Notes: generated from the sequence alone by a model not told the origin. Shown: positions 1,259-39,953, numbered from the stretch's first letter. The stretch is 46,323 nucleotides of DNA from a virus (IMGVR_UViG_3300012352_000462:1-46323); one strand, 5' to 3'. Made by a program: numbers and translations.

Positions 1259-1978
1259 CTATTTTTTGCTTGCACTGAACAAAATATCATTGCGAGCAAA
1301 TACACATTGCGAACATGCAACACATGCAGAACCCTTTTCGCTAATCAGCTGCAACTTACGATTATTTTCAGGGCATGGAATGGCAGACTTGTCTTGAATA
1401 GTCTTGAAGTCCGCCTTACCTGTAGCAAAGTCTTTAGCAAGATAAGCAAGCTTTACATCATACTGTTGCTTTAGTTCGAATCCTAGGTCCTTGTTGGCCT
1501 CATCCGTAGAAAAGTATAGGCTAAGGTTGTCAATACCAATAAGCATTGGGATAGCAAAGTCTGAACGAGTATATGCCCAAAATTGAACGGTATTGTGCTT
1601 TAGGATTACATCCTTCCATGCATTAGTGTAATCAACATTGAAGAAGTCACCGTCCCAGTGAATGCGGAATAACTTTTCTGCATTACGCTTGTCACACTCT
1701 GCAACAAATTCGGTAATCATATCATCGATTAGGTTATACATGGTAAGGTAATCAGCGTCTTTTACCTGTTCCCAGTTCTTAGTCAATACCTCACGAACAC
1801 CCTTGAATACACGCTCTAGGTTACCTGCATAGCAAATCTTTTCACATACGGTAGTTGCTCCAGGGCATGAGTAAGCTTTTCCGCTAGGTAGGCCAAAGGT
1901 ATTGGCCATGGTTGGCTGCTTGCCTGCCTTGTTAACTTGGTTGGCAACTTTTCTATCTTTTGAACGAATTAGGGGCAT
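1259..1978 (-). CDS. GP88-family phage protein (Cys-rich, radical-SAM-like motif spacing)
   Basis: Motifs FGLPSG..SCPGA..VCEKICYA, FRIHWDGDFF, FWAYTR and C-terminal CPE...CVACSQC are typical of actinophage gp88-like proteins. Confidence 0.75.
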   Translation of the reverse strand: MPLIRSKDRKVANQVNKAGKQPTMANTFGLPSGKAYSCPGATTVCEKICYAGNLERVFKGVREVLTKNWEQVKDADYLTMYNLIDDMITEFVAECDKRNAEKLFRIHWDGDFFNVDYTNAWKDVILKHNTVQFWAYTRSDFAIPMLIGIDNLSLYFSTDEANKDLGFELKQQYDVKLAYLAKDFATGKADFKTIQDKSAIPCPENNRKLQLISEKGSACVACSQCVFARNDILFSASKK

Positions 1979-6929: not shown

Positions 6930-7895
6930 GTGCTATTTAATAAATTCTCTAAGAAAATCTTTGTATCCATAGCATCGCTAATGGACCTAGAACTAGAGCC
7001 TACTGTCATTGACATAATTGAAAAGGCAGACAACCCAGAAAGCCTATTTATCTCGGTATTCTCACAAGATGACAAACATCCTGATCTGGAATCTATTTTT
7101 GAGAAATATGGCATAACCAAATACTCCTATCGTAAAGTTCACTATAAAGAAGCTCGTGGTCTAGGATTTGCTAGATTTATGACATGGGCAGGGAATAGCA
7201 TTGAAGACTATAGATACTATCTTCAAATAGATAGCCATATGCGTTTTGACCAGGGATGGGATACAAATCTTATAAAATCCTATGAAAGACTAAAGCCTAT
7301 TTGGGGAGACTACGTCTTTAGTACATATCCACCATCGTACGAATATGATGAAAATGGCGAGGTACTTTTAATGAATGGACCTATCCCTCCCTGTCTAGAA
7401 TTAGTAAGAACTAAGGACTATCTAAAATTCGAAGCAAAATACTCTGAGTATCGTGGTGGGGATATTGGACAAGAAACAGGATATCTCTGTGGTGGATTTT
7501 CTTTTGGCTATTCAAAGATCTTCAATCTGGTGAAACCAGATCCTCTTATCTATTTTAATGGTGAAGAACACCTTTTAGCTATAAGATTACATCAAAATGA
7601 CATCAAAGTTGTATGTCCTCCATATGTGCCTATCTATCATGATTATGAGGGGGTACGAAGGAAGCGTGTTTGGGAAGTAAATCCCGAAAAGGAAAATATG
7701 CAACAAATGTCAAAGAGAAGAGTATTAGAATTCTATGCTGACATGCTTGATGACGAATTCGGGATTAAAGACCGTATGAGATATACAAGTTTCTTCTACA
7801 ACTTCGTAAGAAGATTTCCTTCTGAGCATGCACAATTGGGATTAGATGATCCTATGTATGACGAATGGATTGAAAAGTATCCTCACAAAGCGTAG
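6930..7895 (+). CDS. Glycosyltransferase, GT60/Gnt1-like polypeptide GlcNAc-transferase family
   Basis: IFVSIAS..D.EL, A.NPE, EARGLGFAR, YYLQIDSHMRFDQGWD, IYFNGEE motifs; leaderless TATAAT-N6-GTG. Confidence 0.8.
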   Translation: MLFNKFSKKIFVSIASLMDLELEPTVIDIIEKADNPESLFISVFSQDDKHPDLESIFEKYGITKYSYRKVHYKEARGLGFARFMTWAGNSIEDYRYYLQIDSHMRFDQGWDTNLIKSYERLKPIWGDYVFSTYPPSYEYDENGEVLLMNGPIPPCLELVRTKDYLKFEAKYSEYRGGDIGQETGYLCGGFSFGYSKIFNLVKPDPLIYFNGEEHLLAIRLHQNDIKVVCPPYVPIYHDYEGVRRKRVWEVNPEKENMQQMSKRRVLEFYADMLDDEFGIKDRMRYTSFFYNFVRRFPSEHAQLGLDDPMYDEWIEKYPHKA

Positions 7896-7981: not shown

Positions 7982-8182
7982 TTACCATTTGTCTAGAGGA
8001 CACTTTGCTTCATGCAAAGTAGTCTTCAATTTCATAAAGCAGCCACATTTCTTACACTTCATTAAGTTCTTATTTAAGAATGGGCATTCATTACATATAG
8101 CTAGACGTTCTTCTATTAGTTCTTTGTTACTTCTAGGTTCCCTCGGATCGAAGAGGTCAAAGAAAGTTACGTCTTTTGTCAT
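7982..8182 (-). CDS. Small Cys-rich protein (DUF6171-like), paralogue 1
   Basis: R..ICNECP...CKKCGCFM.LK......CP..KW. Confidence 0.8.
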   Translation of the reverse strand: MTKDVTFFDLFDPREPRSNKELIEERLAICNECPFLNKNLMKCKKCGCFMKLKTTLHEAKCPLDKW

Positions 8183-8868
8183 TCCTTAATTATATCAGTA
8201 TTTCTTCTGGAGACTATACCGTCTTCATCCCAGGTTGCTGGCTGCAAAATACTCTGTATTCCAATATGCCTAACTGTTTCTAGCTTATAGTTTGGGATTA
8301 TTACCTTTGTTCCCCTAACCATTTTGCCAAACCTGGCTTCATGGAATTCACCAAATGGATACTCGATGTCAAAGATACGCTTATTAAAGATCGATGGGTT
8401 CCAGGAGAAGAACCATGGATTATCAATCTTTGCATTATTTAGCACAACAGAATCATCGACAATACTGTATTCATACTTATCCATCGTATACTCCATATAT
8501 TTTTCATTTCTAGCAAATTTAACTTGGCACACATCTTTGTTTATTAGCGGTAGCAAGTTGTCAACATTAAGCTCATTTACTATCTCCCAGTCTTCCTCAA
8601 AAAATACAACGTTTTCATAAGGCAGCTGCTTAAATAACTTAAACATTATTCTTAGCACTGTAGAGTGTCTATCTTCTCCATAGTTAAAACCAAAGGATGG
8701 AAACTTAAGTGTGTGGTACCCATCATAATTTATTGTAGGTCCATCAGAGTTATCTATAATAAATTTTTTAGATATATTACCTTTTAGATTTTTGTTCAGT
8801 GAGGATATGGTTTTATCAAGGTAGTCTAATCTACCAGCTGTCAAAACTATCAGGCATGTATTGTTCAC
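8179..8868 (-). CDS. GT-A fold glycosyltransferase (GT2-like)
   Basis: LTAGRLDYL..TI.S, FIIDNSD, VVFFEEDW, FSWNPSI, VRHIG; leaderless TGCTAAAAT-N6-GTG. Confidence 0.75.
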   Translation of the reverse strand: MNNTCLIVLTAGRLDYLDKTISSLNKNLKGNISKKFIIDNSDGPTINYDGYHTLKFPSFGFNYGEDRHSTVLRIMFKLFKQLPYENVVFFEEDWEIVNELNVDNLLPLINKDVCQVKFARNEKYMEYTMDKYEYSIVDDSVVLNNAKIDNPWFFSWNPSIFNKRIFDIEYPFGEFHEARFGKMVRGTKVIIPNYKLETVRHIGIQSILQPATWDEDGIVSRRNTDIIKE

Positions 8869-9628: not shown

Positions 9629-10024
9629 ATGACATCTTCCTGTGGACCCGAAACTTTTGGTGCTGACCCAGTCATTCTAAAATGGCAGGTAGTCAGAGGC
9701 GATACTTCGCCATTACGTGTTCAATTTTTTGAAAACGACGAGTCCACAGCTTACGACACAGATTCCTGGGTATATGAATCATTTGTTTACGATGCCAAGG
9801 GAGACGTAGTCACAGAGCTTGCTACCGTTGCTGGTGACGGATATGTAGATATTATTGCAGCACCAGAGATTACACAGCTATGGGGTACTGGATATGCACC
9901 AGTCGTAGCTGAATTGGCTTTTGATTTGCAAGTCACAATTGATGGGGAAACCGTATGGACACCAGTTATTGGTACCATTGTTGTGCTTGGAGACGTTACA
10001 GGAGGTTTAAATGCCAACTATTAA
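9629..10024 (+). CDS. Virion-associated protein, Ig/BppU-N-like (VVRGDT motif)
   Basis: ORF track; resembles 12188-12595 (YYKGDT...YDVEI); first gene of the fibre cluster. Confidence 0.6.
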   Translation: MTSSCGPETFGADPVILKWQVVRGDTSPLRVQFFENDESTAYDTDSWVYESFVYDAKGDVVTELATVAGDGYVDIIAAPEITQLWGTGYAPVVAELAFDLQVTIDGETVWTPVIGTIVVLGDVTGGLNANY

Positions 10025-12149
10025 GATTGTACCAATGCCAGGAGTTTCAGTACCTGGCCCACAGGGACCAGCAGGTCAGCCAGGACCAGCAGGGCCAGCA
10101 GGCCCATCTGGACTATTTGAGGCAGTAAGAGTTGAAACTGGTGCCTACATACAACAAGAAACTACAAATATGAGCTTTGTAGTTTATCCACCATTAAGTA
10201 GTGGTTGGTCTATTGGACAAAGAGTAAGACTCTGGCATACAGATCTACAAGGACTCCATGTAGACGGAACTATAGATTACATAGCTGCAGAATTTAGAGA
10301 CTCATTTAGTATAGTTATTGATACCTATAATCTAAGTGGTATGGATACCCTAGAATATGATATGACATTGCTAACTGCTGGAACAGGTGCAGTAGATAGC
10401 CATGGAGACTTCCAGTTCACTGCTGCAACCGCTAATGTCAACAACTCACAATCACTAAGGCTGGAGTCTAGAAGGTGGGATGGAACACAGGCTTCTGCTT
10501 TAATTCTTAGTCCAGGTGATCCTTCTGCAGTTATTAATGCGACTAATATGCAGGGGTATCCATTTAGTAATCAGTGGTCTTCTGCTACTTGGAGTGGAGA
10601 AGCAGTTGATATTTTAGATGCCACAGACATTGTTGATTGGTTAAACCAAATAACTGGATACTCAAACATACAGCGTGTGATTATCAACCAAGGCACACCA
10701 ATAAATGTTACTGGTTTGAGCTGGACTCCAACAAATGTTCAGCTTGCCGTTGCTGTGCCAGCTGAAGACGTGACACAGATAACAGACATTACTTTTATAT
10801 ATTCAACTACATCTCAAATACGTGTTGATTATGATAATGATGCTATTGACATTATTGGAAACAAAATGGGCATCAACCTTACAACTACACAAGGTAGAGA
10901 CATTAACGTCACATCTTCTGACGATTTGCTTATTCAAACAGGAGATGATACATCTATTAGATCAGGTGGACATATTAACTTTGTGTCATCAGCAGATAAC
11001 AATAACTATGAGTGGAGAATGGAATCTAACGGTACTCTTGAATTTCCTGCTCGTGGACGGCTCAGGAACCCTGCAAACTCTTCTGGAGATGGAAACGGCT
11101 ATGATACATTTGAAATAATCCCAGACTTTAGTCGTTATGAATACGATCAATACCTAATCGTAGACCCTACTCAACCAAACCACATCCACATTCGCCCTGG
11201 CGGAACACAAGACGCATCTCTTGCAGAGCTTATCTTGGGTGGAGAATATACAAATGTCCGTGTCTCTGACTCTGGCGACAATGTAGTGATAAGCACACTT
11301 GGCACCGATGGCCCTCAGATTACAAATAATTACACAAATATAAATACAAGCAATGGTAACTTCATTACCTACGACTCAGCCGACATTCGTGTTGGTGGTT
11401 GGGTGTCTATAGATAGTGTTGATTGGGTAATTGCCGAGGTAATTCCTAACACACCATCAGCAGGACTAATAACTGTTGTAGCAGGTTCTGGACCAGGATT
11501 TGAGGCAGGAGCATCATACGATTTTACGTATGTAACAAAATACTCAAAAGAGTGGCAATTTACAAATAACGGATACCTAAACCTTCCATCAGGAAATCCA
11601 GTAATATCAAACCTGGCAGTACCAGGAGACATTACCATTGGTGCTTACAACGGAGTGAAGCTTTCTTTTGCAGATGTTCCAGGTGCAGGACTAAAATTCC
11701 CTGACGATACCGTTCAAACAACAGCTTATCCAGGCCCAGGGGCACTATTCCCACAGTCAGTAAACTGGACACCAGAAGTATCTGGAACTGGTTTTGTACA
11801 GACATCAAATCAGGCAACTGGTACATACCTAAAGTATGGCTCTATGGTTGTAGTAAATATGCTAGTTCCATTTACATCTGTCACTGATTTTGGTACTGGG
11901 CAATATTCCGTTACGCTACCGTTCGCTGCAAAGCAACATGCGGATGTCTTTGCTGGATCAATTCACAATACTGGACCAACAACAGATCACTACAGCCTAA
12001 AGGGTCACCTTTCTGCAGGGAATACTATAATGACATTGTGGTATATTTCTGGTAGTTCTAAGGATGAGCCATTCAAGCACAATGCACCAATTACTGTAAA
12101 CACAACAGATTTATTCCACATGCACTTCATTTATGAAATTCAGGAATAG
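10011..12149 (+). CDS. Tail fibre protein with N-terminal collagen-like repeat
   Basis: GPQGPAGQPGPAGPAGP; GLKFPDDTVQTTA linker; beta-rich C-terminal domain. Confidence 0.75.
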   Translation: MPTIKIVPMPGVSVPGPQGPAGQPGPAGPAGPSGLFEAVRVETGAYIQQETTNMSFVVYPPLSSGWSIGQRVRLWHTDLQGLHVDGTIDYIAAEFRDSFSIVIDTYNLSGMDTLEYDMTLLTAGTGAVDSHGDFQFTAATANVNNSQSLRLESRRWDGTQASALILSPGDPSAVINATNMQGYPFSNQWSSATWSGEAVDILDATDIVDWLNQITGYSNIQRVIINQGTPINVTGLSWTPTNVQLAVAVPAEDVTQITDITFIYSTTSQIRVDYDNDAIDIIGNKMGINLTTTQGRDINVTSSDDLLIQTGDDTSIRSGGHINFVSSADNNNYEWRMESNGTLEFPARGRLRNPANSSGDGNGYDTFEIIPDFSRYEYDQYLIVDPTQPNHIHIRPGGTQDASLAELILGGEYTNVRVSDSGDNVVISTLGTDGPQITNNYTNINTSNGNFITYDSADIRVGGWVSIDSVDWVIAEVIPNTPSAGLITVVAGSGPGFEAGASYDFTYVTKYSKEWQFTNNGYLNLPSGNPVISNLAVPGDITIGAYNGVKLSFADVPGAGLKFPDDTVQTTAYPGPGALFPQSVNWTPEVSGTGFVQTSNQATGTYLKYGSMVVVNMLVPFTSVTDFGTGQYSVTLPFAAKQHADVFAGSIHNTGPTTDHYSLKGHLSAGNTIMTLWYISGSSKDEPFKHNAPITVNTTDLFHMHFIYEIQE

Positions 12150-14723: not shown

Positions 14724-15593
14724 ATGTTAGGAGTAGGCGGAAAGTTTGCAGCATCTAAAGGAATGGTACTAGTACCAGATCTATCTGGAAAAACCGTATC
14801 TGAAGCAAATCAAGCACTTTCTGCAGCTGGTCTTGTTGTTGGAACTACATCATCAACAGTCAGAAATGATAGTCCATCATTAGATAATAAAGCTTACTCT
14901 CAATCAATTGCAGCAGGGACCTCTGTTGACTATGAAACGGTTATAAATTTTTCTTATTGGACATATGTTTATGTCCCTCCTGCTGCACCACCAGTAACCT
15001 ATTCTCCATGCGGTAGTTGTGGTGAGCAGATAGATCAAATAGATCAGGCTAGTGGTTGTAGTGGAACTAGCTACTGGGAAAGCTTTACGGCTGTCAATAA
15101 ACAGCCATACTGTAGAGATGACAACGGTCAGTTTGCATTTTATTCAGAATGTGGTAGAGAGCCATACTATAGTTCAAGTGTAGTGCCTGGACTTTGTGGT
15201 GCACCAACATGTTCTGGATCTTATAGGGACAATGTTGGATTCCCTGGATCATGTTCTGGTGGACAAAAGTGTACATATTATAACTGGTATGACTCTTGTG
15301 GAAATTATCTCAAAACCACTGAGGGTGGATGTACCTCTTGCTGTACCGCAGGCCTAGTTTCTTGTAGTACTGTAACGGTAGCTTCTGGCGTATATGTCAA
15401 GACATGTACGTACCGTAGAGCAGATTGCTCTACTTATACCGATAGCACAACTACTTGTTCGACAACATCTTCTACGTCTTGCGGAAGCTGTGTTTACGCT
15501 GGATATACAATAGGCTCCTATAAGAGCTGTACAACAACCACAAGAAGTTCATCATGTACGACATCTACATCTACAAAATCTGTTAAGTGTTAA
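14724..15593 (+). CDS. PASTA-domain protein with Cys/Ser/Thr-rich C-terminus; putative receptor-binding tip
   Basis: VPDLSGKTVSEANQALSAAGLVV...SQSIAAGTSV (PASTA pattern); 22 Cys after the Pro linker. Confidence 0.7.
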   Translation: MLGVGGKFAASKGMVLVPDLSGKTVSEANQALSAAGLVVGTTSSTVRNDSPSLDNKAYSQSIAAGTSVDYETVINFSYWTYVYVPPAAPPVTYSPCGSCGEQIDQIDQASGCSGTSYWESFTAVNKQPYCRDDNGQFAFYSECGREPYYSSSVVPGLCGAPTCSGSYRDNVGFPGSCSGGQKCTYYNWYDSCGNYLKTTEGGCTSCCTAGLVSCSTVTVASGVYVKTCTYRRADCSTYTDSTTTCSTTSSTSCGSCVYAGYTIGSYKSCTTTTRSSSCTTSTSTKSVKC

Positions 15594-15863: not shown

Positions 15864-16118
15864 ATGTCAAACAGCCCATTCCAACAATGGAAAGAAAATC
15901 TTGGTGACAGTAGGCCATGGGATTTGCTAAATCCGAAGACAGAGTTTGTAGATAAGGATACCGCACAGGCTAGATATGACATTTGCAAAGAGTGTCCATT
16001 TTTGCTAGCTACAACTCAGTGTTCAAAGTGTGGATGTTTTATGAAGGCTAAGGTTAAGATAGCTCATTCAGAATGCCCAGAACATAAATGGGGCAAGGCT
16101 ACCCAGGAAAATCACTAA
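15864..16118 (+). CDS. Small Cys-rich protein (DUF6171-like), paralogue 2
   Basis: RYDICKECP...CSKCGCFM.AK......CP..KW. Confidence 0.8.
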   Translation: MSNSPFQQWKENLGDSRPWDLLNPKTEFVDKDTAQARYDICKECPFLLATTQCSKCGCFMKAKVKIAHSECPEHKWGKATQENH

Positions 16119-16611
16119 TAATTTTTAGTGCACTATTTTCGGTAGACCAGGCAGACCAGTTCTTTCCACCATTAGACATTTGATATGCAATCTTTGCATT
16201 AGTAAATGGATCAAATAAGTCTTTTTCAGAGTTAAGGTTATATTTTTCAACTCTATTTGTTCCAAGAGATCCAGACATGTTAATCTGGAAAAGACCATAG
16301 CAGTCGCTAGAGTTGTTGTATGCCATAGGACGCTTTGTAGATTCTTTTACTGCAACTGCCCAAGCATACTTTAGTCCATATCCAGAAAATCCAGCTTGCT
16401 TAAGTATAGATATAAGCTCAGCATCAGACATCATTGTCTTTGCATCTCGCTTAGCTTTTACAATCTTATATGTTCCACGCTCAAAGCTAACCTCCTGGCT
16501 AGCTGGCACAGTAAAGCTCTGAAGGTTGGACTCAGTAGGTTGCCCCATAATGCTAGAGGCAGTCAACGAGACAACCATGCTGATCGATCCAAATATTATG
16601 TTGCTATTCAT
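16099..16611 (-). CDS. Secreted lysozyme-like lytic transglycosylase
   Basis: Hydrophobic N-terminus; AWAVAVKES, YGLFQIN, LFDPFTNAKIA, GGKNWSAW. Confidence 0.85.
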   Translation of the reverse strand: MNSNIIFGSISMVVSLTASSIMGQPTESNLQSFTVPASQEVSFERGTYKIVKAKRDAKTMMSDAELISILKQAGFSGYGLKYAWAVAVKESTKRPMAYNNSSDCYGLFQINMSGSLGTNRVEKYNLNSEKDLFDPFTNAKIAYQMSNGGKNWSAWSTENSALKIISDFPG

Positions 16612-17234
16612 TATCCCACCAAGTTAGAGTCAATAAAATTTCTATATGTAATATCAGAATAGTCTCCACCAAAAGTTTCGATATTCTCTACCCTAGTTAG
16701 GTGTCCCTTTTTAGGTGCGTGAATCATTTCTCCATTACCGATATAGATGCCAACGTGATAGGCATCCTTGTTTCCGTTATAGTGGAAGACTACTAGATCG
16801 CCAGGCTTTGGGTCTTTGGTTGCGGTACCGCTTGTGTCCTGCTTAGATGCTCTATGCTCAAGCTCAATGTCAAGTTGCTGGAAAAACCACATGGTCAGAC
16901 CAGAGCAGTCCCAGCCAGAAGGCGTGGCACCAGAAAATACATACCAAGTTTTACCAACATGGCTTTTTAGCTTTTCAATAGCTTGCTTCACTTTGCCAGT
17001 ATTTTTAGCAAGGATAAGGTGTTTTTCAAAAGCCTTACTATTGGCTTCCTTTTCTAGACTATCTGACAGCTTAGCCATAGATATTTCACGCATAGCTTTA
17101 TTATTAAAATTACTCAACGCAATTGCATTGTTGCTCTTTGAGATAGATTCTATGGGGCTTATAGCTCCAAGAGCAGGGGTGGAACCAGTTGTTAGCGTCA
17201 AACAAATAACGCTTATTGCAGCAATATACTTCAT
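16611..17234 (-). CDS. Secreted NlpC/P60 cell-wall peptidase
   Basis: YVFSGATPSGWDCSG, PGDLVVF, HVGIYIGNGEMIHAP; signal peptide MKYIAAISVICLTL; AGGAGG SD before ATG 17234. Confidence 0.9.
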   Translation of the reverse strand: MKYIAAISVICLTLTTGSTPALGAISPIESISKSNNAIALSNFNNKAMREISMAKLSDSLEKEANSKAFEKHLILAKNTGKVKQAIEKLKSHVGKTWYVFSGATPSGWDCSGLTMWFFQQLDIELEHRASKQDTSGTATKDPKPGDLVVFHYNGNKDAYHVGIYIGNGEMIHAPKKGHLTRVENIETFGGDYSDITYRNFIDSNLVG

Positions 17235-17299
17235 TGCTACCTCCTTTTTATTCTTTTCGTTGTTACGGCTCTTACACAGCCTTGGCGACAATATTTTTA

Positions 17300-19218: not shown

Positions 19219-20856
19219 ATGGCCAGGTTTATTAATCAGTCATCATTTATTGGTAGAAACTTTTATTTTAAGATAAATCCAGACGGATCAGTAACCCCTC
19301 CACCTCCGCCCCCACCATCAGAAGAGATTTCATTACTTGGTGTCAGGACCTATGATGCAACCTCATTGGATGCAGTAAAATCAATATCAGATCTTGAGCA
19401 GTATTCCTCACAGATCACATCCACCTATGGCTATCTAAGATACAACCTAAAGAGATCATCGGTTCTTGGTGGAGACAAGGTTATCACAGTACCATTTTAT
19501 AAGAACGTAGATGGAAAGCTTTGTCAATCAGCATTCTCACTAACTGACACCAATCAATTTTTATCAAACCAAACATCAATATTTAATTATGGAAATGATG
19601 ACCACGACACCTTAGCGATGAGAGCAAATGGAACTGGTTTTATATCTGTTTATAATAGTGGAAACTGGGCAAATGGAAACAACTATTCTATTTTCCGAGG
19701 TGCAACAGAGCTAGCAAACTTTACTGGTTTCCCAGGGCAGTTTGGTACTACAGTAGAGTCGTTTGTAAGTAATACTACTGCACACTTTATATCATTTCCA
19801 CAGTCTGGAGCAGAAGTTTGGATCAGATTTAATGACCTAGCAATGCTTATGGATGGATTCTCAACAGAGTATGACTCAATCTTTAGCTACCTAGGAAATA
19901 ATAGTCCAACGAATAGTCTATGGTCAATATCAGACGGCGTAAATGCAGCACTGATTGGAAGATGGGGCAACAATTCTGCCATTTATGTAGAGTTTGACCT
20001 AACAAACGGTAGAGTTTATAAGTCAGATCTGGTATCCTACAGCCCTGGTTATCAGTATAACTCTACAGAAGAAGACGCTAACGGAACAGCAATGTTTGCA
20101 GTTAATGCAAAGAACGCATTCCATGCAAATGGACTGTTTAACTATGAGCTGCTTGATAACAGCTATTCTGTTGGTTGGAGATTTGCTGGAGGCATGACTG
20201 CAAATGGAATGCAAGCAATATCTATTGGAAACAGTACACAGACCGACATGGATATCTTCGGATCAATTGATTCGAATGGAAATGTATGGTTTGCAGACTG
20301 GGGTCACGACGACGGCGGACTATTTGGTGTTGGAAATGACAATACGCTAGGTGTTGCGAAGACAAAGATAAGACTATCTGCCCCTTCAGATATAGATGGG
20401 GTACCTGCTATAGAAGAACAGCCTGGATCGCTAACGCTCTTTAACTCTACAACATATCCAGATAATACAGTTACTGGCGGATGGTACACCTACATTACTG
20501 GCGGATACGGAACACCAGTATTTGGAATTTCTAGCAACGGAATTAGCCTCAGAGCACCATACTGGCAAGATGGCGTAGCCTCTACTAATAACAATATTGA
20601 TTTGAGTGGGGCAACATCCATAACAATCCAGATATCGTCTAGCGTACCTGACCCATCATACTACTACTCATCAATACAGTGGCCAACATCAACAGGATAT
20701 ACTGGATATCAAATAGCTAATCCGTCTAATTATAACTTCACGAATAGAGAAATAACCATTCCAATAACTGATGGTAGCGTTGGTCAATTTAGGCTGGTAG
20801 TTACCAACTCAGGAGATGGAACTCTCACTCTACACTCTGTCGTGGTGAACTACTAA
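19219..20856 (+). CDS. Putative virion/receptor-binding protein with poly-Pro linker
   Basis: ORF track; TPPPPPPPS linker; beta-rich; ends in Tyr. Confidence 0.6.
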   Translation: MARFINQSSFIGRNFYFKINPDGSVTPPPPPPPSEEISLLGVRTYDATSLDAVKSISDLEQYSSQITSTYGYLRYNLKRSSVLGGDKVITVPFYKNVDGKLCQSAFSLTDTNQFLSNQTSIFNYGNDDHDTLAMRANGTGFISVYNSGNWANGNNYSIFRGATELANFTGFPGQFGTTVESFVSNTTAHFISFPQSGAEVWIRFNDLAMLMDGFSTEYDSIFSYLGNNSPTNSLWSISDGVNAALIGRWGNNSAIYVEFDLTNGRVYKSDLVSYSPGYQYNSTEEDANGTAMFAVNAKNAFHANGLFNYELLDNSYSVGWRFAGGMTANGMQAISIGNSTQTDMDIFGSIDSNGNVWFADWGHDDGGLFGVGNDNTLGVAKTKIRLSAPSDIDGVPAIEEQPGSLTLFNSTTYPDNTVTGGWYTYITGGYGTPVFGISSNGISLRAPYWQDGVASTNNNIDLSGATSITIQISSSVPDPSYYYSSIQWPTSTGYTGYQIANPSNYNFTNREITIPITDGSVGQFRLVVTNSGDGTLTLHSVVVNY

Positions 20857-25571: not shown

Positions 25572-25800
25572 TAACTTTATAGATATGTCTAACCTAGAAG
25601 CTAATCAACCAAAATCAATAGTAAAGATTCTCAGGTTTACTCAAGAGAGAGACTTTGTTATAGAGGTTGCAGGGGATGTTTCTGACGAAGATGTAATAAA
25701 TGATTTCAAGTCAGGTAGGTACTCTGAGTCAGATGCAACATTGATAACCCAAAGAGTTCCAATAGAAAGCATAATAATCGAGAAATCATATAGGTGGTAA
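25564..25800 (+). CDS. Hypothetical protein (start uncertain)
   Basis: 3' part of ORF 25486-25800, filling the gap in the cassette. Confidence 0.55.
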   Translation: MVDNFIDMSNLEANQPKSIVKILRFTQERDFVIEVAGDVSDEDVINDFKSGRYSESDATLITQRVPIESIIIEKSYRW

Positions 25801-25802
25801 CT

Positions 25803-25976
25803 ATGGAAAACAGAGTTGACATAGGCGTAGCAACAGATAGATTGAAGACTTGCTACTCTTGCGAATTCTTTTCTAAGGAAACAAAAACTTGCGATAAGTG
25901 CGGATGCTTTATGCTGCTAAAAGTAAAAGTTCCATCAGCAGAGTGCCCTGTTCATAAATGGGCAAAGAGTGACTAA
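25803..25976 (+). CDS. Small Cys-rich protein (DUF6171-like), paralogue 3
   Basis: RLKTCYSCE...CDKCGCFM.LK......CP..KW; AGGTGG SD. Confidence 0.8.
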   Translation: MENRVDIGVATDRLKTCYSCEFFSKETKTCDKCGCFMLLKVKVPSAECPVHKWAKSD

Positions 25977-33840: not shown

Positions 33841-34953
33841 ATGTCGGAAGAAATTATGAATAATAATACAGAAATTGCAAAGGACGCTGCTTCAGGTGCC
33901 TTTGCTTCTGGTGGTATTGGTGGTATCGTGGATCCAGGTGCAGAAACACTTGGAAACATTCCTACCGCTAATTTCGGTGTAACAACTGGACCAAATGCTA
34001 CCAACCCTTCTGGTGATGCAGGTAGTGGCATCCTACGCCCTGAACAGGCACGTCGTTTTATTGACTACGTATGGGATGCTACAGTTCTCGCCAAAGATGG
34101 TCGCCGTGTTACAATGCGAGCAAACACTATGGAACTTGAAAAGGTTAACGTAGGTGAGCGTGTAATTCGTGCTGCTGCTCAGGCAGATCCAACCTACACC
34201 AACACTGGTGCGACATTCAGCAAGGTGGAGCTTACAACCAAGAAGATTCGTCTTGACTGGGAAGTTTCAGCTGAAGCACTAGAAGATGGCATTGAGGGTG
34301 GTGCTCTAGAGGACCACTTGGTACGCTTGATGACAAACGCATTTGCGAATGACATTGAGGACCTAGCCATCAATGGTGACGCTGGTTCGGATCCATTCCT
34401 TGGAATTATGAACGGTTTCGTAAACCGTGTTAAGACCAACGGAGATGCTCACGAAGCAGTTGTTACAGTTGCTGACAACGCATGGACACCAGATGTTCTA
34501 CAGAGCGTAATTCTCGCTCTACCACGTAAGTATCGTGCACTTAAGTCTAACCTTAAGTTCTACGCTGGTACTGACGCATTCCAGGGCATTGTAAAGAACA
34601 ACGGTACTCTAGCTGACGCTATTGCTGAAGCTTTCGCTGGTTCTCCAGCAGGTACTCCAGCTAACCGTCAGGCTTACCTAGACGGTGCTGCACAGACATT
34701 CGGTGGAGCACGTACTACTCGTGTTCTCGGAATTGACGTACAGGAAGTTCCTTACTACCCTAATGGTTATGTTGACCTTACATTCCCTCAGAACCGTGTT
34801 TGGGGTTTCCAGAGAGACATCACCGTTAACCGTGAGTACAAGCCAAAGAAGGACACCATTGAGTACACCGTATTCGTACGTTTCGGTATTCAGTGGGAGG
34901 AAGAGGATGCAGTTGCATTCGCTGACGCAGATTCTTCGGATCTATACTACTAA
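33841..34953 (+). CDS. Major capsid protein (HK97 fold)
   Basis: GIL.PEQARRFID, VELTTKK, EALED.IEG, FANDIEDLAINGD; AGGAGG SD; position after protease; terminator follows. Confidence 0.92.
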   Translation: MSEEIMNNNTEIAKDAASGAFASGGIGGIVDPGAETLGNIPTANFGVTTGPNATNPSGDAGSGILRPEQARRFIDYVWDATVLAKDGRRVTMRANTMELEKVNVGERVIRAAAQADPTYTNTGATFSKVELTTKKIRLDWEVSAEALEDGIEGGALEDHLVRLMTNAFANDIEDLAINGDAGSDPFLGIMNGFVNRVKTNGDAHEAVVTVADNAWTPDVLQSVILALPRKYRALKSNLKFYAGTDAFQGIVKNNGTLADAIAEAFAGSPAGTPANRQAYLDGAAQTFGGARTTRVLGIDVQEVPYYPNGYVDLTFPQNRVWGFQRDITVNREYKPKKDTIEYTVFVRFGIQWEEEDAVAFADADSSDLYY

Positions 34954-34970
34954 AAACTAAATAAAGATTT

Positions 34971-35004
34971 GGGAGCAGGGATTATATCCTTGCTCCCTTT
35001 TCTT
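34971..35004 (+). terminator. Intrinsic terminator after capsid gene
   Basis: GGGAGCAGGGA/TCCTTGCTCCC followed by TTTTCTT. Confidence 0.8.
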
Positions 35005-35042
35005 ATTTGTCTGATATAATTGGTTTAGGAGGTAATGCTATC

Positions 35043-35537
35043 ATGGCAGAAAATAAACTAGAAAATGAAAGCACAGAAGCAGAGATTGTTGCTGTAGCAG
35101 AAGAAGCAGTTGCAGAGACTGTAGAGAATGTTGAAGAGGTAGCAGAAGTTCCTGCTGCTGAAGAGGCTGTTACAGAAGAGCCTAAAGAAGTAAAGAAGCC
35201 AGCTAAGAGCAAGAAGGCTGTAGAGAACGCAATCGTTTCTGAGTCTGCTGACAAAGAAGACGAAGACGTTGACGCACTACTAGATAGACTAATTGCTTCA
35301 GAGAAGAAGGCTGGAAATGTTATTGGGTCAGTATCTGCAGACAAGGTTACACCAGTTGCAGTAGATGCAGATGCAGCCAAGGTTGCAGTTTTCTCAACCA
35401 GAAATGCATCATGGGGAGGGTATGGCAGCGTCTACAAGGGATACAACATCCTAACAAAGACACGTGCAGACGCATGGCTATCTCGTAGCCACGTACGACT
35501 TGCTACTCCTTCTGAAGTAGCCCAACACTTGAGGTAA
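35043..35537 (+). CDS. Acidic low-complexity protein with small basic C-terminal domain
   Basis: Start reassigned to ATG 35043 after AGGAGG and TGATATAAT. Confidence 0.75.
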   Translation: MAENKLENESTEAEIVAVAEEAVAETVENVEEVAEVPAAEEAVTEEPKEVKKPAKSKKAVENAIVSESADKEDEDVDALLDRLIASEKKAGNVIGSVSADKVTPVAVDADAAKVAVFSTRNASWGGYGSVYKGYNILTKTRADAWLSRSHVRLATPSEVAQHLR

Positions 35538-35543
35538 ATATAA

Positions 35544-36422
35544 ATGCAAATATTGAGGGTTCCGTCAAGCACAATAGCTTACACGATTGACGATTTGGTT
35601 CCAAACGCCGAGTATGAGTTTTCTTGGGAAGACTTGGCGGATAACTCAATATTCTCTGGAACAGTAACTGCAAACCAGAACGGTATTGTAACTATAAGCC
35701 TTCCATCTAATAGAGATGGAGAATATGAAATCTTATTTGGAGACTTAGACGAAGTTGTCACGGTAGTTAGACCATATGTAGATCCAACCACAAAGGGTGT
35801 TACTGCTAGTGAGATATCACAGTACTCTAAGAACGAAGAGCTAGCCAGAGCAATCATCGACTCAGTAATCGATGAAGGATTCTATTATTCAAAGAAGGTA
35901 ATAGAAACTACTGGAAATGGTTCTGACTATATTCCACTATGGGTTAATGCAAGCAAGGTCTTAGAAGTTTATGAGAACAACGTTCTTGTATACGACGCAG
36001 AAAATCCATCAGACTATGAGTTTGCATATTCGATCACAAAAGACAAGACTGCAATTATTAAGTCGTATTCTGGAGAAGTTAATAGATTAGAGTCTGCAGA
36101 ACTAATCCTGCCAGCAGCAGCATCAGATATAATCGGCACACAGTTTGTTCATGGAACATTCCCAAAGACATACGACTATACAATTGTATTAGAGGTTGGA
36201 TACAAGAAGATCCCATCCGACATTGTAAGAGCAGCAGAGCTATTGATAGATGATATAGCGTGTGGCAAGCTAGACTATTACACCAGGTATGTATCTGACT
36301 ACAGCACAGACCAGTTTAAGATTAAGTTTGACACTAGATCATTCGAGGGAACAGGTAACATCGTAGTAGACAAGATACTTTCAAAGTATGGCAAGTCTAT
36401 TAGATCAATCGGGGTGCTATAA
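35544..36422 (+). CDS. Head-tail adaptor/connector
   Basis: Synteny; GYKKIPSDIVRAAELLI and VDKILSKY motifs. Confidence 0.7.
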   Translation: MQILRVPSSTIAYTIDDLVPNAEYEFSWEDLADNSIFSGTVTANQNGIVTISLPSNRDGEYEILFGDLDEVVTVVRPYVDPTTKGVTASEISQYSKNEELARAIIDSVIDEGFYYSKKVIETTGNGSDYIPLWVNASKVLEVYENNVLVYDAENPSDYEFAYSITKDKTAIIKSYSGEVNRLESAELILPAAASDIIGTQFVHGTFPKTYDYTIVLEVGYKKIPSDIVRAAELLIDDIACGKLDYYTRYVSDYSTDQFKIKFDTRSFEGTGNIVVDKILSKYGKSIRSIGVL

Positions 36423-36875
36423 ATGTCATGCCCGAACATAACTGATTTTGTCTTCCCAATGATGGCAGACATCTTTTATCCAATTGTAGAACAGGGTTCT
36501 CTTGGAAACATAACTAAGCACTGGGTATTCGATAGAACAATAGCTTGCAACTTTGCACCAGCAGGGGCAGGTAACAAAGAAGAGGTTGTTCCAAATATAG
36601 ACATAACCCTAGACTCGCTTCTTGTTGGCAGATCAAAGTCAGACATTCGCAATAGCAGCATAGAGTCATCAAACGCAATTACTAATATTATTATTACCAA
36701 CATCAGAGATGCAAATTGCAACCCAATATACCTAGAATCTTCTGGAGTCAGAAAGAACAGATCAACAATATTTGAGGTTGCTACCACGCAACCATTCATT
36801 GGTCCTTTCGGAGGAACCCCAGAATATTTTAGGGTGGTGCTAAGAAGATCTCAGAACCAGGGTGCTGACGTATGA
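36423..36875 (+). CDS. Head-closure/head-tail joining protein
   Basis: Synteny and size. Confidence 0.55.
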   Translation: MSCPNITDFVFPMMADIFYPIVEQGSLGNITKHWVFDRTIACNFAPAGAGNKEEVVPNIDITLDSLLVGRSKSDIRNSSIESSNAITNIIITNIRDANCNPIYLESSGVRKNRSTIFEVATTQPFIGPFGGTPEYFRVVLRRSQNQGADV

Positions 36876-37540
36876 TTATAAAAATGAACGGCACCCAATT
36901 CATTAAGGATATGAATAATATCATTAAGTACTCTGAGGGATTCTTAGAAGGCGTAGAGCGTGGAAAAGCACAAATGCTATCAAACGTTGGTAAGGCATCC
37001 ATTGAGGTAATCAAGCAATATATAGATTCTAGTGCTAGGGTAAACCCAGCAGCTCTGCACCACGTTTATGAATGGTATCAGGTTGGTAGCCCAGATGCCA
37101 GACTATTTGACATAGTATATAGCGTAAATGGTGCTGGTCTTTCTATTAGATCACAATTCAGACAGTCAACTGTAATTAAGAATGGATCTAAGGTTCCATT
37201 CTACGATAAGGCACGAATTATGGAGTCTGGGGTATCTATTACTATTAAGCCAAAGTCTGCCAACGTGCTTTCGTTTGATGTAAACGGAGAAAAAGTATTT
37301 ACTAAAGGACCAGTTACAGTTAACGATCCAGGTGGACCAGATGTGCAAGGATCATTTGAGGCAGCATTTGATTCATTCATGAGAGGTTATTTCTCTCAAG
37401 CTTTCTTGTCAAGTAGTGGTATACTATCTAAGTTGAATGATATTTCAATATTCAAAAAGAATATGTCTTCAGGTAAAAGATCTGGAAAGCAAAAAGGTAT
37501 TCAAACAGGTTATCGTTGGATAACAAGCGTAGGAGTTTAA
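36872..37540 (+). CDS. Neck/tail-completion protein
   Basis: Synteny. Confidence 0.5.
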   Translation: MIIKMNGTQFIKDMNNIIKYSEGFLEGVERGKAQMLSNVGKASIEVIKQYIDSSARVNPAALHHVYEWYQVGSPDARLFDIVYSVNGAGLSIRSQFRQSTVIKNGSKVPFYDKARIMESGVSITIKPKSANVLSFDVNGEKVFTKGPVTVNDPGGPDVQGSFEAAFDSFMRGYFSQAFLSSSGILSKLNDISIFKKNMSSGKRSGKQKGIQTGYRWITSVGV

Positions 37541-37544
37541 AAAA

Positions 37545-38111
37545 ATGGCAATGACATATCCACCAGTTCTTATTAATGCATATTTGGCTGAAAAGGTTGT
37601 TGAGGCTCTACCTGGCAGATTCGCTGGAGGTCTTTTCAGATTTTTCCCTACTATGCCAACAGACATTAATCAGCTAACTGAACAATTTCCAGATGCTGCA
37701 GGCGATGTTTTTGCGGTATACGACAGAATGTTTAGAATGCGAAATAAGCCATTTCCACACATTAAAGAAGAGCAAATCCTATACTACTTCTATAAGATGG
37801 CAAATGACCCAGTAGCACTAATAGAAGCTACACAGGCAGTCTACGACCTGCTGGACCGTGGTGACGAGTCAGCTGAAGATGTGAACAGATGGGTTGCTTC
37901 TAAGGTAAATGAGGATGGTCTAGTTGTTATTGCTGGCGACGAGTTTTATCCAGTCTATTTCCATGAATTTAAGATTTTCCAGTTAGAAGAAGCCAGAGAC
38001 ATAGTGGACTTCGGCACAGCCAGAACTTATGCTGGTAACAAGATTATTATTGATTATTGCTACCACACCAAGGGCTATTCGGCTGGCAAATATAACGGCA
38101 TTGCCTACTAA
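37545..38111 (+). CDS. Tail terminator-like protein
   Basis: Immediately precedes the tail tube gene. Confidence 0.55.
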   Translation: MAMTYPPVLINAYLAEKVVEALPGRFAGGLFRFFPTMPTDINQLTEQFPDAAGDVFAVYDRMFRMRNKPFPHIKEEQILYYFYKMANDPVALIEATQAVYDLLDRGDESAEDVNRWVASKVNEDGLVVIAGDEFYPVYFHEFKIFQLEEARDIVDFGTARTYAGNKIIIDYCYHTKGYSAGKYNGIAY

Positions 38112-38191
38112 TCTTATTTAATAAAAGCATGCTATACTGTAGTTGAGGAAACAACGCCCTCTAATTCCATAGAAGAAGAGGTGAGAAAAAT

Positions 38192-38827
38192 ATGGCATAT
38201 ACACGTGGTACTAGTGCTAACATCATTGTTGGTGCTGCTGCTTTGTTCACATACGAAAATGGTACATTGTCTGATGGAGTAATTCCATCATATGTTCCTG
38301 GTGTGAGCTTCAAGGATACCCTGGAGGACAATCCAGCTGGAGACTTCCGTAACGTTGGTTACACATCTAACGGTCTAGAAATCCAGTTCCAGCCAGACTT
38401 CGGTGAAGTCCAGGTTGACCAGGTTCTTGACGTTGCTAAGCTTTACAAGCAGGGTATGCAGGTTAACCTGAATACATCATTTGCAGAGGCTACACTAGAG
38501 AACCTAGTGTTCGCACTTGCTGCAAATGCTGATACCCAGCTAAGCTCAGTAAACGGCAATCCAACCCTAAACCTATCTGCTGGTGAACTCGGTGAGTGTC
38601 CAGTAGAGCGTGGTCTAATTGCGGTTGGTCCAGGTACTGGTGACTGTGACGCATCAAGCTCAATTGAGCGTGTTTACGTTGCATACCGTGCACTTTCTAT
38701 TGAAAGTGTTACAGTATCAGCTAAGCGTGATGAGGCAACAATGTTCGACGTTTCATTCCGTCTACTACCAAACGACGCAGGTTCGTATGGTAAGATTGTT
38801 GACCGCACAATCCCAGCTTACTACTAA
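38192..38827 (+). CDS. Major tail tube protein
   Basis: NIIVGAA, VGYTSNGLE..FQPD..EVQVDQ, FAEATLENL..AL; own promoter and terminator. Confidence 0.85.
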   Translation: MAYTRGTSANIIVGAAALFTYENGTLSDGVIPSYVPGVSFKDTLEDNPAGDFRNVGYTSNGLEIQFQPDFGEVQVDQVLDVAKLYKQGMQVNLNTSFAEATLENLVFALAANADTQLSSVNGNPTLNLSAGELGECPVERGLIAVGPGTGDCDASSSIERVYVAYRALSIESVTVSAKRDEATMFDVSFRLLPNDAGSYGKIVDRTIPAYY

Positions 38828-38842
38828 AAGCTAAAAAACTAA

Positions 38843-38881
38843 GGTACTGCTCAGGTTTACTCCTGGGCAGTACTTTTTTTT
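38843..38881 (+). terminator. Intrinsic terminator after tail tube gene
   Basis: GGTACTGCTCAGG/CCTGGGCAGTACT followed by a T-run. Confidence 0.85.
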
Positions 38882-38895
38882 GCTAAAATAGATTA

Positions 38896-39582
38896 ATGGC
38901 TACTAAAGTATACGACTCAGCTTACATAGAGTTAATGGATGGAACAGAGTTGTATATAACTCCGTTGAAGATTCGCTATCTGCGTGAGTTCATGGATGCA
39001 TTCCAGTTTGTTAAAACTGCCACCAATGATGATGAAGCCATATTCTTTCTGACGGAATGTGCAAGAATTGCCATGAAGCAATATTATCCAGTAATAGAAA
39101 CTATCACAGATTTAGAGGATAGCGTAGATCTTAAAACTGTGTATAAGATTATTGAGATTGCTGGCGGTATTTCGATAAAGAACAAAGAATCCGACATAGC
39201 AAAACAGGCTAACGAAGATGACTCTTGGGATAATCTAGACCTCGTAAAGCTAGAGACAGAGATTTTTCAGCTGGGTATCTGGAAAGATTATGAAGAGCTT
39301 GAGATGTCTATGTCAATGCCAGAGTTAGTAGCAACACTAGGCTCTAGAAGAGAGCTTGAGTACCAAGAGAAGAAGTTCTTGGCTGCTATACAGGGCGTAG
39401 ATCTTGATAAGAATTCTGGTAAAAAAGAAGAAGACCCATGGGAAAGAATTAAGGCGAAAGCCTTCAGTAAAGGCAAGGCAACTAGTGGAGACGATATTCT
39501 TGCATACCAAGGTGCCAACGCATCAAAGGCTGGTTTTGGTATTGGAATGGGACTTGGCTACGAGGATTTAACACAAAAATAG
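38896..39582 (+). CDS. Tail assembly chaperone, long (GT-like) form
   Basis: Between tail tube and tape measure; N-terminal half homologous to 39636-39953. Confidence 0.7.
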   Translation: MATKVYDSAYIELMDGTELYITPLKIRYLREFMDAFQFVKTATNDDEAIFFLTECARIAMKQYYPVIETITDLEDSVDLKTVYKIIEIAGGISIKNKESDIAKQANEDDSWDNLDLVKLETEIFQLGIWKDYEELEMSMSMPELVATLGSRRELEYQEKKFLAAIQGVDLDKNSGKKEEDPWERIKAKAFSKGKATSGDDILAYQGANASKAGFGIGMGLGYEDLTQK

Positions 39583-39635: not shown

Positions 39636-39953
39636 ATGGCAACAACTATTAACGAAACAAAAGAGATTACTCTTATCGATGGAACTACTATTTCAGTTCG
39701 ACCATTGAAGATCTCTCTGCTCCGTCCTTTTATGAAGAAGTTCGAAGGAATCGCAGCAGTTGCAGAGGACAACGACAAGTCCATGAGTATTCTTATGGAG
39801 TGTGTACAGATTGCAATGCAGCAGTACAAGCCAGACTTGGCAGACGATCTCGCCAAATTGGAAGAAAACCTAGATCTTCCTACAGTCTACAAAATTGTTG
39901 AAGAGGCTTCAGGCGTAAAGCTTGGCGACCCTTCGGCACTTCTAGGTAACTAA
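39636..39953 (+). CDS. Tail assembly chaperone, short (G-like) form
   Basis: I.L.DGT....PLKI..LR.FM..F...EC..IAM.QY.P...LE...DL.TVYKI.E.A.G shared with the previous gene. Confidence 0.7.
   Translation: MATTINETKEITLIDGTTISVRPLKISLLRPFMKKFEGIAAVAEDNDKSMSILMECVQIAMQQYKPDLADDLAKLEENLDLPTVYKIVEEASGVKLGDPSALLGN

Follow-up and report, generated by a model that had tools for sequence, protein, structure and literature searches.

Tyr-Tyr ends on the capsid protein and the tail-tube protein of a freshwater phage lineage: a candidate acceptor tag for virion glycosylation

The capsid and tail-tube genes

The record IMGVR_UViG_3300012352_000462 – a linear stretch of 46,323 bases, analysed whole and called here the window – comes from a siphophage (41% GC, 43% complete) whose major capsid protein and tail tube protein both end in Tyr-Tyr (YY). 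The major capsid protein (33841..34953, + strand) is of the HK97 type (phrog_1623, E 8e-75; PF05065), is 41-42% identical to capsids of Streptomyces phages of the Stanwilliamsviridae and ends ADADSSDLYY*; its last codons, TAC TAC TAA at 34945..34953 (+), stand in place of the Asp-Ser-stop of the phage family, and a terminator-like hairpin follows at 34971..34997 (+, consensus match). The tail tube protein (38192..38827, +), 45-48% identical to major tail proteins of Streptomyces phages, ends DRTIPAYY*; here TAC TAC TAA (38819..38827, +) takes the place of the family's Ser-stop or Ala-stop, again with a terminator-like hairpin behind it (38841..38876, +, consensus match). Our reading, developed below, is that YY may be a tyrosine acceptor tag for glycosylation of the virion.

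The tube protein has the siphophage tube fold: its structural model (predicted local distance difference test, pLDDT, 85.6) matches siphophage tail tubes with a best E of 2.6e-9. In this model the final strand stops at residue 207, which would place the YY tag past the fold, and since the tube tail has no Ser the tyrosines would carry the sole hydroxyls there. For the capsid, a sequence search found no solved structure, and an AlphaFold model (pLDDT 43.8) was too poor for use; from HK97-type capsids in general, an outward exposure of the capsid tail would be expected.

The two YY ends, to which a preliminary description of the window had drawn attention, are genuine. Both strands of the window were scanned and TACTACTAA occurs only at 34945 and 38819. 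A second IMG/VR locus (L081), 99% identical in the capsid and 96% in the tube, carries both ends, and the Logan contigs of sequencing run X1 show no difference at either stop, so that assembly error does not account for them. Run X1 is the top holder of the window (share 0.73); the runs that hold it bear a freshwater label, and none of the listed holders is an RNA dataset. Nor is the coincidence of the two ends a matter of chance, given that only 5 of 2436 closed open reading frames of at least 100 amino acids in 33 family records end in YY, and four of these five are the capsid and tube genes of the two YY records.

The nearest cultured relatives are the Stanwilliamsviridae (Streptomyces BE/BK phages), in which the gene order is the same; one of them, Enygma, has neither a Ser nor a Tyr tag (capsid KIAA*, tube RNIA*). 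The resemblance to Streptomyces phages, together with family genes that we take by eye to be WhiB-like, makes an actinobacterial host probable. A host call from placements of relatives in metagenome-assembled genomes was dropped, the placements being inconsistent and spanning unrelated phyla.

A single and rare lineage

In IMG/VR the family comprises an estimated ~2200 capsid-bearing stretches. We examined 256 loci, of which 116 were distinct and closed at both the capsid and the tube end, 115 of them without YY; the sample is non-random, having been drawn by similarity and pattern scans and, for two scans, from among the matches listed. Gene content was clustered from the proteins of 33 records, the window included, some of which have small gaps. 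Three short unrelated proteins (P0124, P0125 and P0127) were removed from the 90% capsid cluster before counting.

All five true capsid members of that cluster keep YY and end D-(L/V)-Y-Y, with variation in the residues before it (DLYY or DVYY, preceded by SS or AS). The five nearest tube proteins, 86-100% identical, all end PAYY, and YY capsid and YY tube appear to be paired in four genomes. Neither Tyr is replaced by Phe or Trp in any of 10 protein sequences and four contigs. Outside this group a terminal Tyr was found in none of 119 capsid and 115 tube nearest sequences; Ser ends 81 and 76 of these, respectively, and most of the rest end in Ala. The first 80 IMG/VR loci give the same picture, with Ser at the end of 55/78 closed capsids and 29/48 closed tubes and Tyr at the end of none. 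Pattern scans of IMG/VR returned two matches for the capsid end, one of them real (L081), and a single match for the tube end, L081 again; a search for further YY genomes gave 23 matches in metagenomes, none from the family, and no match in GTDB. YY marks one lineage, and a rare one. Comparison with relatives indicates that within it DS* has become DLYY* on the capsid and PAS* has become PAYY* on the tube.

The DNA around the stops

It had further been remarked that both ends use the same codons and are followed by AA(A/G)CTAAA. The observation stands, and the shared DNA is incidental. TAC is the favoured Tyr codon of both genes (10:2 in the capsid gene, 7:3 in the tube gene), and the A-rich AACT(A/T)A lies 3′ of the stop in 60/116 tube and 7/116 capsid genes of relatives: an A-rich stretch from stop to hairpin is characteristic of the family. 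Four of five Logan contigs that cross the tube stop have TAC TAC TAA unchanged, with bases behind it that differ or carry insertions and deletions. A DNA motif common to both stops was accordingly rejected as the selected element, since the bases behind the tube stop vary while the codons are constant. The fifth contig (run X13, record 5, at window position 38824) has a 4-base deletion that would give PAY*; it is a single contig with a depth of 8.8.

These data bear on whether YY is a near-neutral outcome of stop loss (TAA to TAC) and a TCC to TAC change, perhaps with gene conversion between the two ends. One or two substitutions would be enough, a Tyr codon followed by a stop lies behind the present stop in 4/116 capsid genes and a Tyr codon in 42/116 tube genes, and TACTACTAAAA.CTAAA is common to both ends; the contig that would read PAY* and the flipping of Ser ends among near-identical relatives (L034/L048) point the same way. 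Yet YY is found on both proteins in none of the 115 other loci, and it is kept down to 86% tube identity and in contigs with 13-15 differences per 131 bases, most of them right behind the stop. In weakly biased genes nearby, four-fold sites have diverged between the window and L081 at a rate of ~0.4; at the pooled rate of 0.27 the chance of eight unchanged Tyr is 0.08, which is weak alone. Taken together we regard a near-neutral origin as improbable.

A shared end-tag on two unrelated proteins

Evidence that the last residue of the two proteins is a shared feature comes from the Ser ends of the family. The 115 loci without YY have Ser on both proteins in 57 cases, on neither in 40, on the capsid alone in 13 and on the tube alone in five (Fisher p 3e-14), whereas a link of this kind to Ser is absent from each of nine further structural proteins (the homologue of the gene at 37545, for instance, with 13/70 vs 9/45). 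On a tree of both proteins built without their tails, 7.1 independent pairs agree in direction and 0.4 oppose it (median p 0.016, range 0.008-0.45); the reverse test gives 7.3 vs 0.0 pairs. The Ser content of the protein bodies is 0.275 in phages with Ser on both ends and 0.307 in the comparison, hence no effect of composition.

The co-variation of Ser, the presence of YY at the very position of that Ser and the tracking of a third gene described below together support a capsid/tube end-tag shared across the family, in which YY would replace the terminal Ser on both proteins. The earlier proposal that the capsid and tube share a tag gains strength from this. The same residue on capsid and tube, Tyr and not Ser, is seen in every YY record that has both genes.

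One more protein may belong to the tag set. The product of 37545..38111 (+), encoded directly 5′ of the tube gene and by that position probably the tail terminator, ends GIAY*. Its Tyr, also noted in the preliminary description, is kept in L081 (GISY*) through a TAC/TAT synonymous change and with the preceding residue altered; this is one instance, and membership as a third tagged protein is a possibility. Two other Tyr ends mentioned with it lie outside the tag set. The ANY* end of 9629..10024 (+) overlaps the start of the next gene and is incidental, relatives of this protein ending mostly GGSL or GGTL; and the VNY* end of a fibre-like protein with a poly-Pro run (19219..20856, +) recurs on its homologue in a phage, G006, that has Ser on both capsid and tube.

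The HbYX motif of proteasome partners is a hydrophobic residue, Tyr and any residue at the C-terminus, and proteasomes occur in actinobacteria. LYY fits this motif, and AYY fits it weakly; with an actinobacterium as the probable host, such tails could bind to its 20S proteasome or block it. What is invariant, however, is the last Tyr: GIAY*, PAY* and NPY* have no penultimate Tyr, and actinobacterial proteasome activators use GQYL. This explanation strikes us as scarcely credible.

Alternatively, YY might be an unmodified aromatic patch left after loss of the Ser tag, which binds non-covalently to a decoration protein, a neighbouring subunit or sugars of the host surface, or which avoids modification or C-terminal proteolysis. 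A single acceptor does not need two adjacent aromatics; a separate lineage with capsids ending NPY* pairs that Tyr with a Trp near the tube end; in distant homologues of the tube a Tyr or Phe frequently comes right after the last strand; and the 40/115 relatives with Ser on neither protein mean that the tag is dispensable. Left unexplained would be the same dipeptide at the tag position of two unrelated folds and the failure of either Tyr ever to become Phe or Trp in the sequences and contigs counted above; moreover, the head-tail operon holds no gene unique to both YY records. We consider a patch of this kind unlikely, though deserving of serious attention.

The NPY* capsid lineage is itself well supported and separate; its members include L295, L298, L300, L314, L321, L323 and L332, in records that lie outside the glycan-cassette region described next.

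A Stealth-like gene tracks the Ser ends

The first gene-content screens tied no gene family cleanly to Ser ends until records without a particular glycan-cassette region were set aside. A cluster of Stealth-like proteins is present in 4/11 records with Ser on both proteins, 0/9 without Ser and 0/9 mixed records, and the seven of seven Ser/Ser records that lack it contain 0/12 markers of its region. Among records with at least five of these markers the gene is found in 4/4 Ser-ending and 0/13 other records (p 4e-4). Copies of this gene, which tracks terminal Ser on capsid and tube, lie on the minus strand at L503:12411-13103, L216:14053-14775, L230:4461-5159 and L464:18618-19313, and also at L607:1273-1959 and L609:5306-6016. 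The gene sits among glycosyltransferases.

A forward test gave a similar result. A separate search gave 80 carriers, and among the 19 longest of them five have a capsid or tube gene, and Ser ends the capsid in 4/4 and the tube in 4/5. Homologues occur in 53 records of cultured actinobacteriophages, three of which were checked (capsid Ser 3/3, tube Ser 2/3): the Streptomyces phage TurkishDelight ends STS* and VAS* and has the Stealth-like gene directly 3′ of a tail gene, Gaia ends SSGS* and VVGS* (its gp10 having been assigned as tube from this ending), and Fionnbharth, a phage of Mycobacterium smegmatis, ends GSGS* on the capsid and GSV* on the tube. TM4, a control without a Stealth-like gene at that place, ends PAA* and ISV*. 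A Stealth profile found no match in 77 further records, most of which are fragments without the region. At least 467 relatives of the gene are present in IMG/VR, and the cultured records listed annotate it as hypothetical. The preliminary description had envisaged a correlation between C-terminal residue and glycosyltransferase across relatives: one exists for the Stealth-like gene and Ser, and none for the PF11397 enzyme taken up in the next section.

The cassette is located between the WhiB-like gene and the homologue of window gene 1-378. From the gene at which the window begins at its left end, the distance outward to the Stealth-like gene is ~18 kb in G007 and ~28 kb in G109. Highly variable glycan cassettes are present in G007, G024, G038, G039, G069 and G109 (for example in L229-L230 and L261). 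They contain glycosyltransferases of families GT1/4, GT2, GT8 and GT61, sulfotransferases, an adenosine-phosphosulfate (APS)-kinase-like protein, a carbamoyltransferase, methyltransferases and sugar epimerases. Hydroxylases and other oxygenases of the 2-oxoglutarate (2OG)-Fe(II) type number 0-14 per family record.

Sulfotransferases, the APS-kinase-like protein, the many 2OG oxygenases and a halogenase in family records raise the prospect that the tyrosines carry some other chemistry: O-sulfation, hydroxylation or dityrosine cross-links. In sulfated peptides Tyr follows acidic residues, as it does at the capsid pair. The tube tail, though, has no acidic run; genes for sulfotransferase, APS kinase, oxygenase or halogenase were not seen in either YY record; and sulfotransferases are found in Ser and Ala phages too, amid glycan genes. 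Such chemistry at YY is very improbable.

Glycosyltransferases of the window

The window encodes, as previously described, an enzyme resembling polypeptide N-acetylglucosamine (GlcNAc) transferases. The product of 6930..7895 (+) belongs to PF11397, the family of the Skp1-type GlcNAc transferase, with 143 bits against a cut-off of 21. Across 15 homologues D101-S102-H103 is invariant and the QIDSH and GEE motifs are invariant or nearly so; the role of a DxH motif is metal binding. The protein thus fits the profile of the Skp1-hydroxyproline GlcNAc transferase and has its conserved DxH, but is phage-borne. Its profile run against solved structures gave spurious RNA-binding matches only. Homologues were gathered with an alignment scan, a single-protein scan having returned one weak locus.

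Could this enzyme, retargeted in the YY lineage, itself add N-acetylhexosamine (HexNAc) to the terminal tyrosines? Its two nearest homologues, at 71-72% identity, probably co-occur with YY capsids and tubes, so that the enzyme probably travels with the lineage, and it falls in a distinct clade of eight (SH-aLRT, the Shimodaira-Hasegawa-like likelihood-ratio test, 99) in which six members have a C-terminal extension in common. Co-inheritance in a single lineage is nonetheless expected by descent. The tree sets the clade among enzymes of mostly Ala-ending phages: within the family, the closest homologues (38-49%) for which the capsid end can be read come from six phages ending DA/VA, DA/AA, DA/AV, DA/PV, DA/AS and DS, five of which have capsid Ala and four no hydroxyl residue at either end. 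The enzyme's cluster is present in 4/11 Ser/Ser and 7/9 non-Ser records; PF11397 is found in 5/39 records, and a closer profile in 1/20 and 8/38. Because the closest homologues sit mostly in Ala-ending phages, the enzyme seems able to do without a hydroxyl at the end of either protein. It is probably not the end-tag enzyme, a role for which it had been put forward and in which we find it quite improbable.

Five homologues carry a 2OG-Fe(II) hydroxylase domain as a fusion partner. These fusions, along with the abundance of hydroxylases in the family, point to hydroxyproline in collagen-like fibres as the more likely acceptor, and the fibre-like protein of 10011..12149 (+), with its collagen-type Gly-Pro-X repeat, is a candidate substrate. 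No prolyl hydroxylase was found in the window or in the other sequence available from the YY genomes.

A second glycosyltransferase had also been assigned to the window. The product of 8179..8868 (−) is probably GT2-like, as judged from look-alikes in the ESM Atlas (scores 0.97-0.98, with GT2 on 20-25% of members in two of the top three clusters); it has no Pfam or PHROG match. Homologues occur in 2/50 family records, the closer one in a Ser/Ser phage.

YY as an acceptor tag for virion glycosylation

The mycobacteriophage Che8 and the cluster O phages offer the closest known system. Their virion O-glycosylation was reportedly described by Freeman et al. in 2023, and the acceptor of the Che8 type is the terminal Ser of the capsid and tail tube. 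Our phage resembles Che8 in being a siphophage, probably of an actinobacterium, with the same two putative targets and a shared end-tag – here recognised from sequence – and in having glycosyltransferases of its own (the PF11397 enzyme and the probable GT2-like protein). It departs from Che8 in that the acceptor Ser is missing, both proteins ending in Tyr-Tyr and the tube tail being without Ser; and the gene that goes with the Ser tag among its relatives is Stealth-like and not one for a polypeptide HexNAc transferase. In Che8 and the cluster O phages, glycosyltransferases of the phage modify capsid and tail tube (PMC11600133, PMC11256854, PMC13445384), and by analogy we infer that the Ser tag of the present family is glycosylated. 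Tyr is a chemically plausible acceptor in the same tag, for in Gram-positive bacterial S-layers its hydroxyl accepts O-glycans (PMC2943079). There, an oligosaccharyltransferase moves a finished chain, probably during secretion, whereas our proposal has an enzyme of the phage act in the cytoplasm on a terminal residue; no membrane oligosaccharyltransferase was found among the 29 window proteins scanned, and the substrates are virion proteins assembled in the cytoplasm.

The interpretation that we favour is that YY is a tyrosine acceptor tag for virion glycosylation, served by an enzyme encoded outside the window; we would put its probability at roughly 0.45. In Ser lineages the last Ser would receive hexose-1-phosphate from a Stealth-like protein in the cytoplasm, and glycosyltransferases encoded nearby would build on it to form a coat on head and tail. 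Stealth proteins have been proposed to be D-hexose-1-phosphoryl transferases (PMC1285062); those described act on polysaccharides or glycans. In the YY lineage the terminal Tyr would be primed by an initiator that accepts Tyr – either a Stealth-like protein with a changed target or a different transferase from the mobile cassette – and the second Tyr of the pair would serve as a recognition aid or a second acceptor. The PF11397 enzyme would more likely act elsewhere on the virion, for instance on hydroxyprolines in the collagen-like fibre, or lengthen the chain. A sharper version, in which sugar-1-phosphate is attached to the final Tyr of three proteins (capsid, tube and tail terminator) by a Stealth-like enzyme that has been retargeted, tag and enzyme having switched jointly from Ser to Tyr inside a single phage family, is advanced tentatively and is on balance unlikely to be right in full.

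Several observations weigh against the proposal. The YY ends are confined to one lineage and so provide no independent repeat; Tyr is one mutation from the TAA stop and from the Ser codon TCC; and the codon behind the stop is already Tyr in the 42/116 tube genes mentioned above. When the window is compared with L081, conservation of the bases 3′ of both stops comes close to that of the YY codons. With a smaller set of 51 rows the tree test is non-significant (p 0.25), and the 40/115 relatives with Ser on neither protein do without the tag. One of the two proteins can gain a terminal Tyr without the other: in the NPY lineage (13 loci) the capsid ends ANPY* or SNPY* and the tube W-(S/T/A/V) in 9/9, and locus L393 has a tube ending RTY with a capsid ending AEA*. 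As for the Stealth-like gene, the region-coverage criterion behind its count was chosen post hoc; without G098, which has no capsid gene, the count becomes 3/3 vs 0/13 (p 0.002); its proteins match PF11380 (Stealth_CR2) weakly in 4/4 cases, with a best E of 2.6e-7 that is under the curated cut-off; and the gene is also present in G122, whose tube ends IGA. Finally, the YY records G000 and G001 (43% and 39% complete) show 0/12 markers of the cassette region and no Stealth-like gene in their sequenced part. No enzyme can be tied to YY because neither record reaches that region.

The YY ends are real and lineage-specific; the system would work like mycobacteriophage virion glycosylation with a different acceptor residue, and would be new if the chemistry holds. 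No report of tyrosine-linked virion glycosylation was found in the literature searched, most subscription papers being outside its reach. Virion glycosylation has so far been shown in few mycobacteriophages only. A study of freshwater actinophages reports glycosyltransferases in them, for which it proposes DNA or the cell wall, and not the virion, as targets (PMC10202952). To judge from the Ser tag and the Stealth-like gene, coated particles would be common in fresh water, where the family is abundant, and the YY lineage would be a natural switch of acceptor residue on two proteins together. If this is true, the Tyr-linked chemistry would be new to phage biology and would come with a short, genetically encoded tag and its enzyme; retargeting of a Stealth-like protein would, if true, provide a portable two-residue tag for tyrosine phosphoglycosylation. 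The homologues in cultured actinobacteriophages make the Ser half testable now.

Other genes of the window

Some further features of the window deserve mention. The TTG start listed for 35007-35537 is probably wrong: behind the capsid terminator, a TATAAT-like box and an AGGAGG site lie ahead of an ATG at 35043. Two related tail-chaperone genes (38896-39582 and 39636-39953), the long one first, replace a frameshifted pair. The fibre-gene region includes small related Cys-rich proteins with a CPxxKW-like end (7982-8182, minus strand; 15864-16118; 25794-25976), one of which usually adjoins the PF11397 gene in relatives, and a protein that has a PASTA domain and a long, Cys-rich C-terminal region (14724-15593). 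Transglycosylase-like and NlpC/P60 genes lie within the same region on the opposite strand (16099-17291, minus strand), and a GP88-family protein (1259-1978, minus strand; PF17338, E 5e-51) is encoded among the small early genes.

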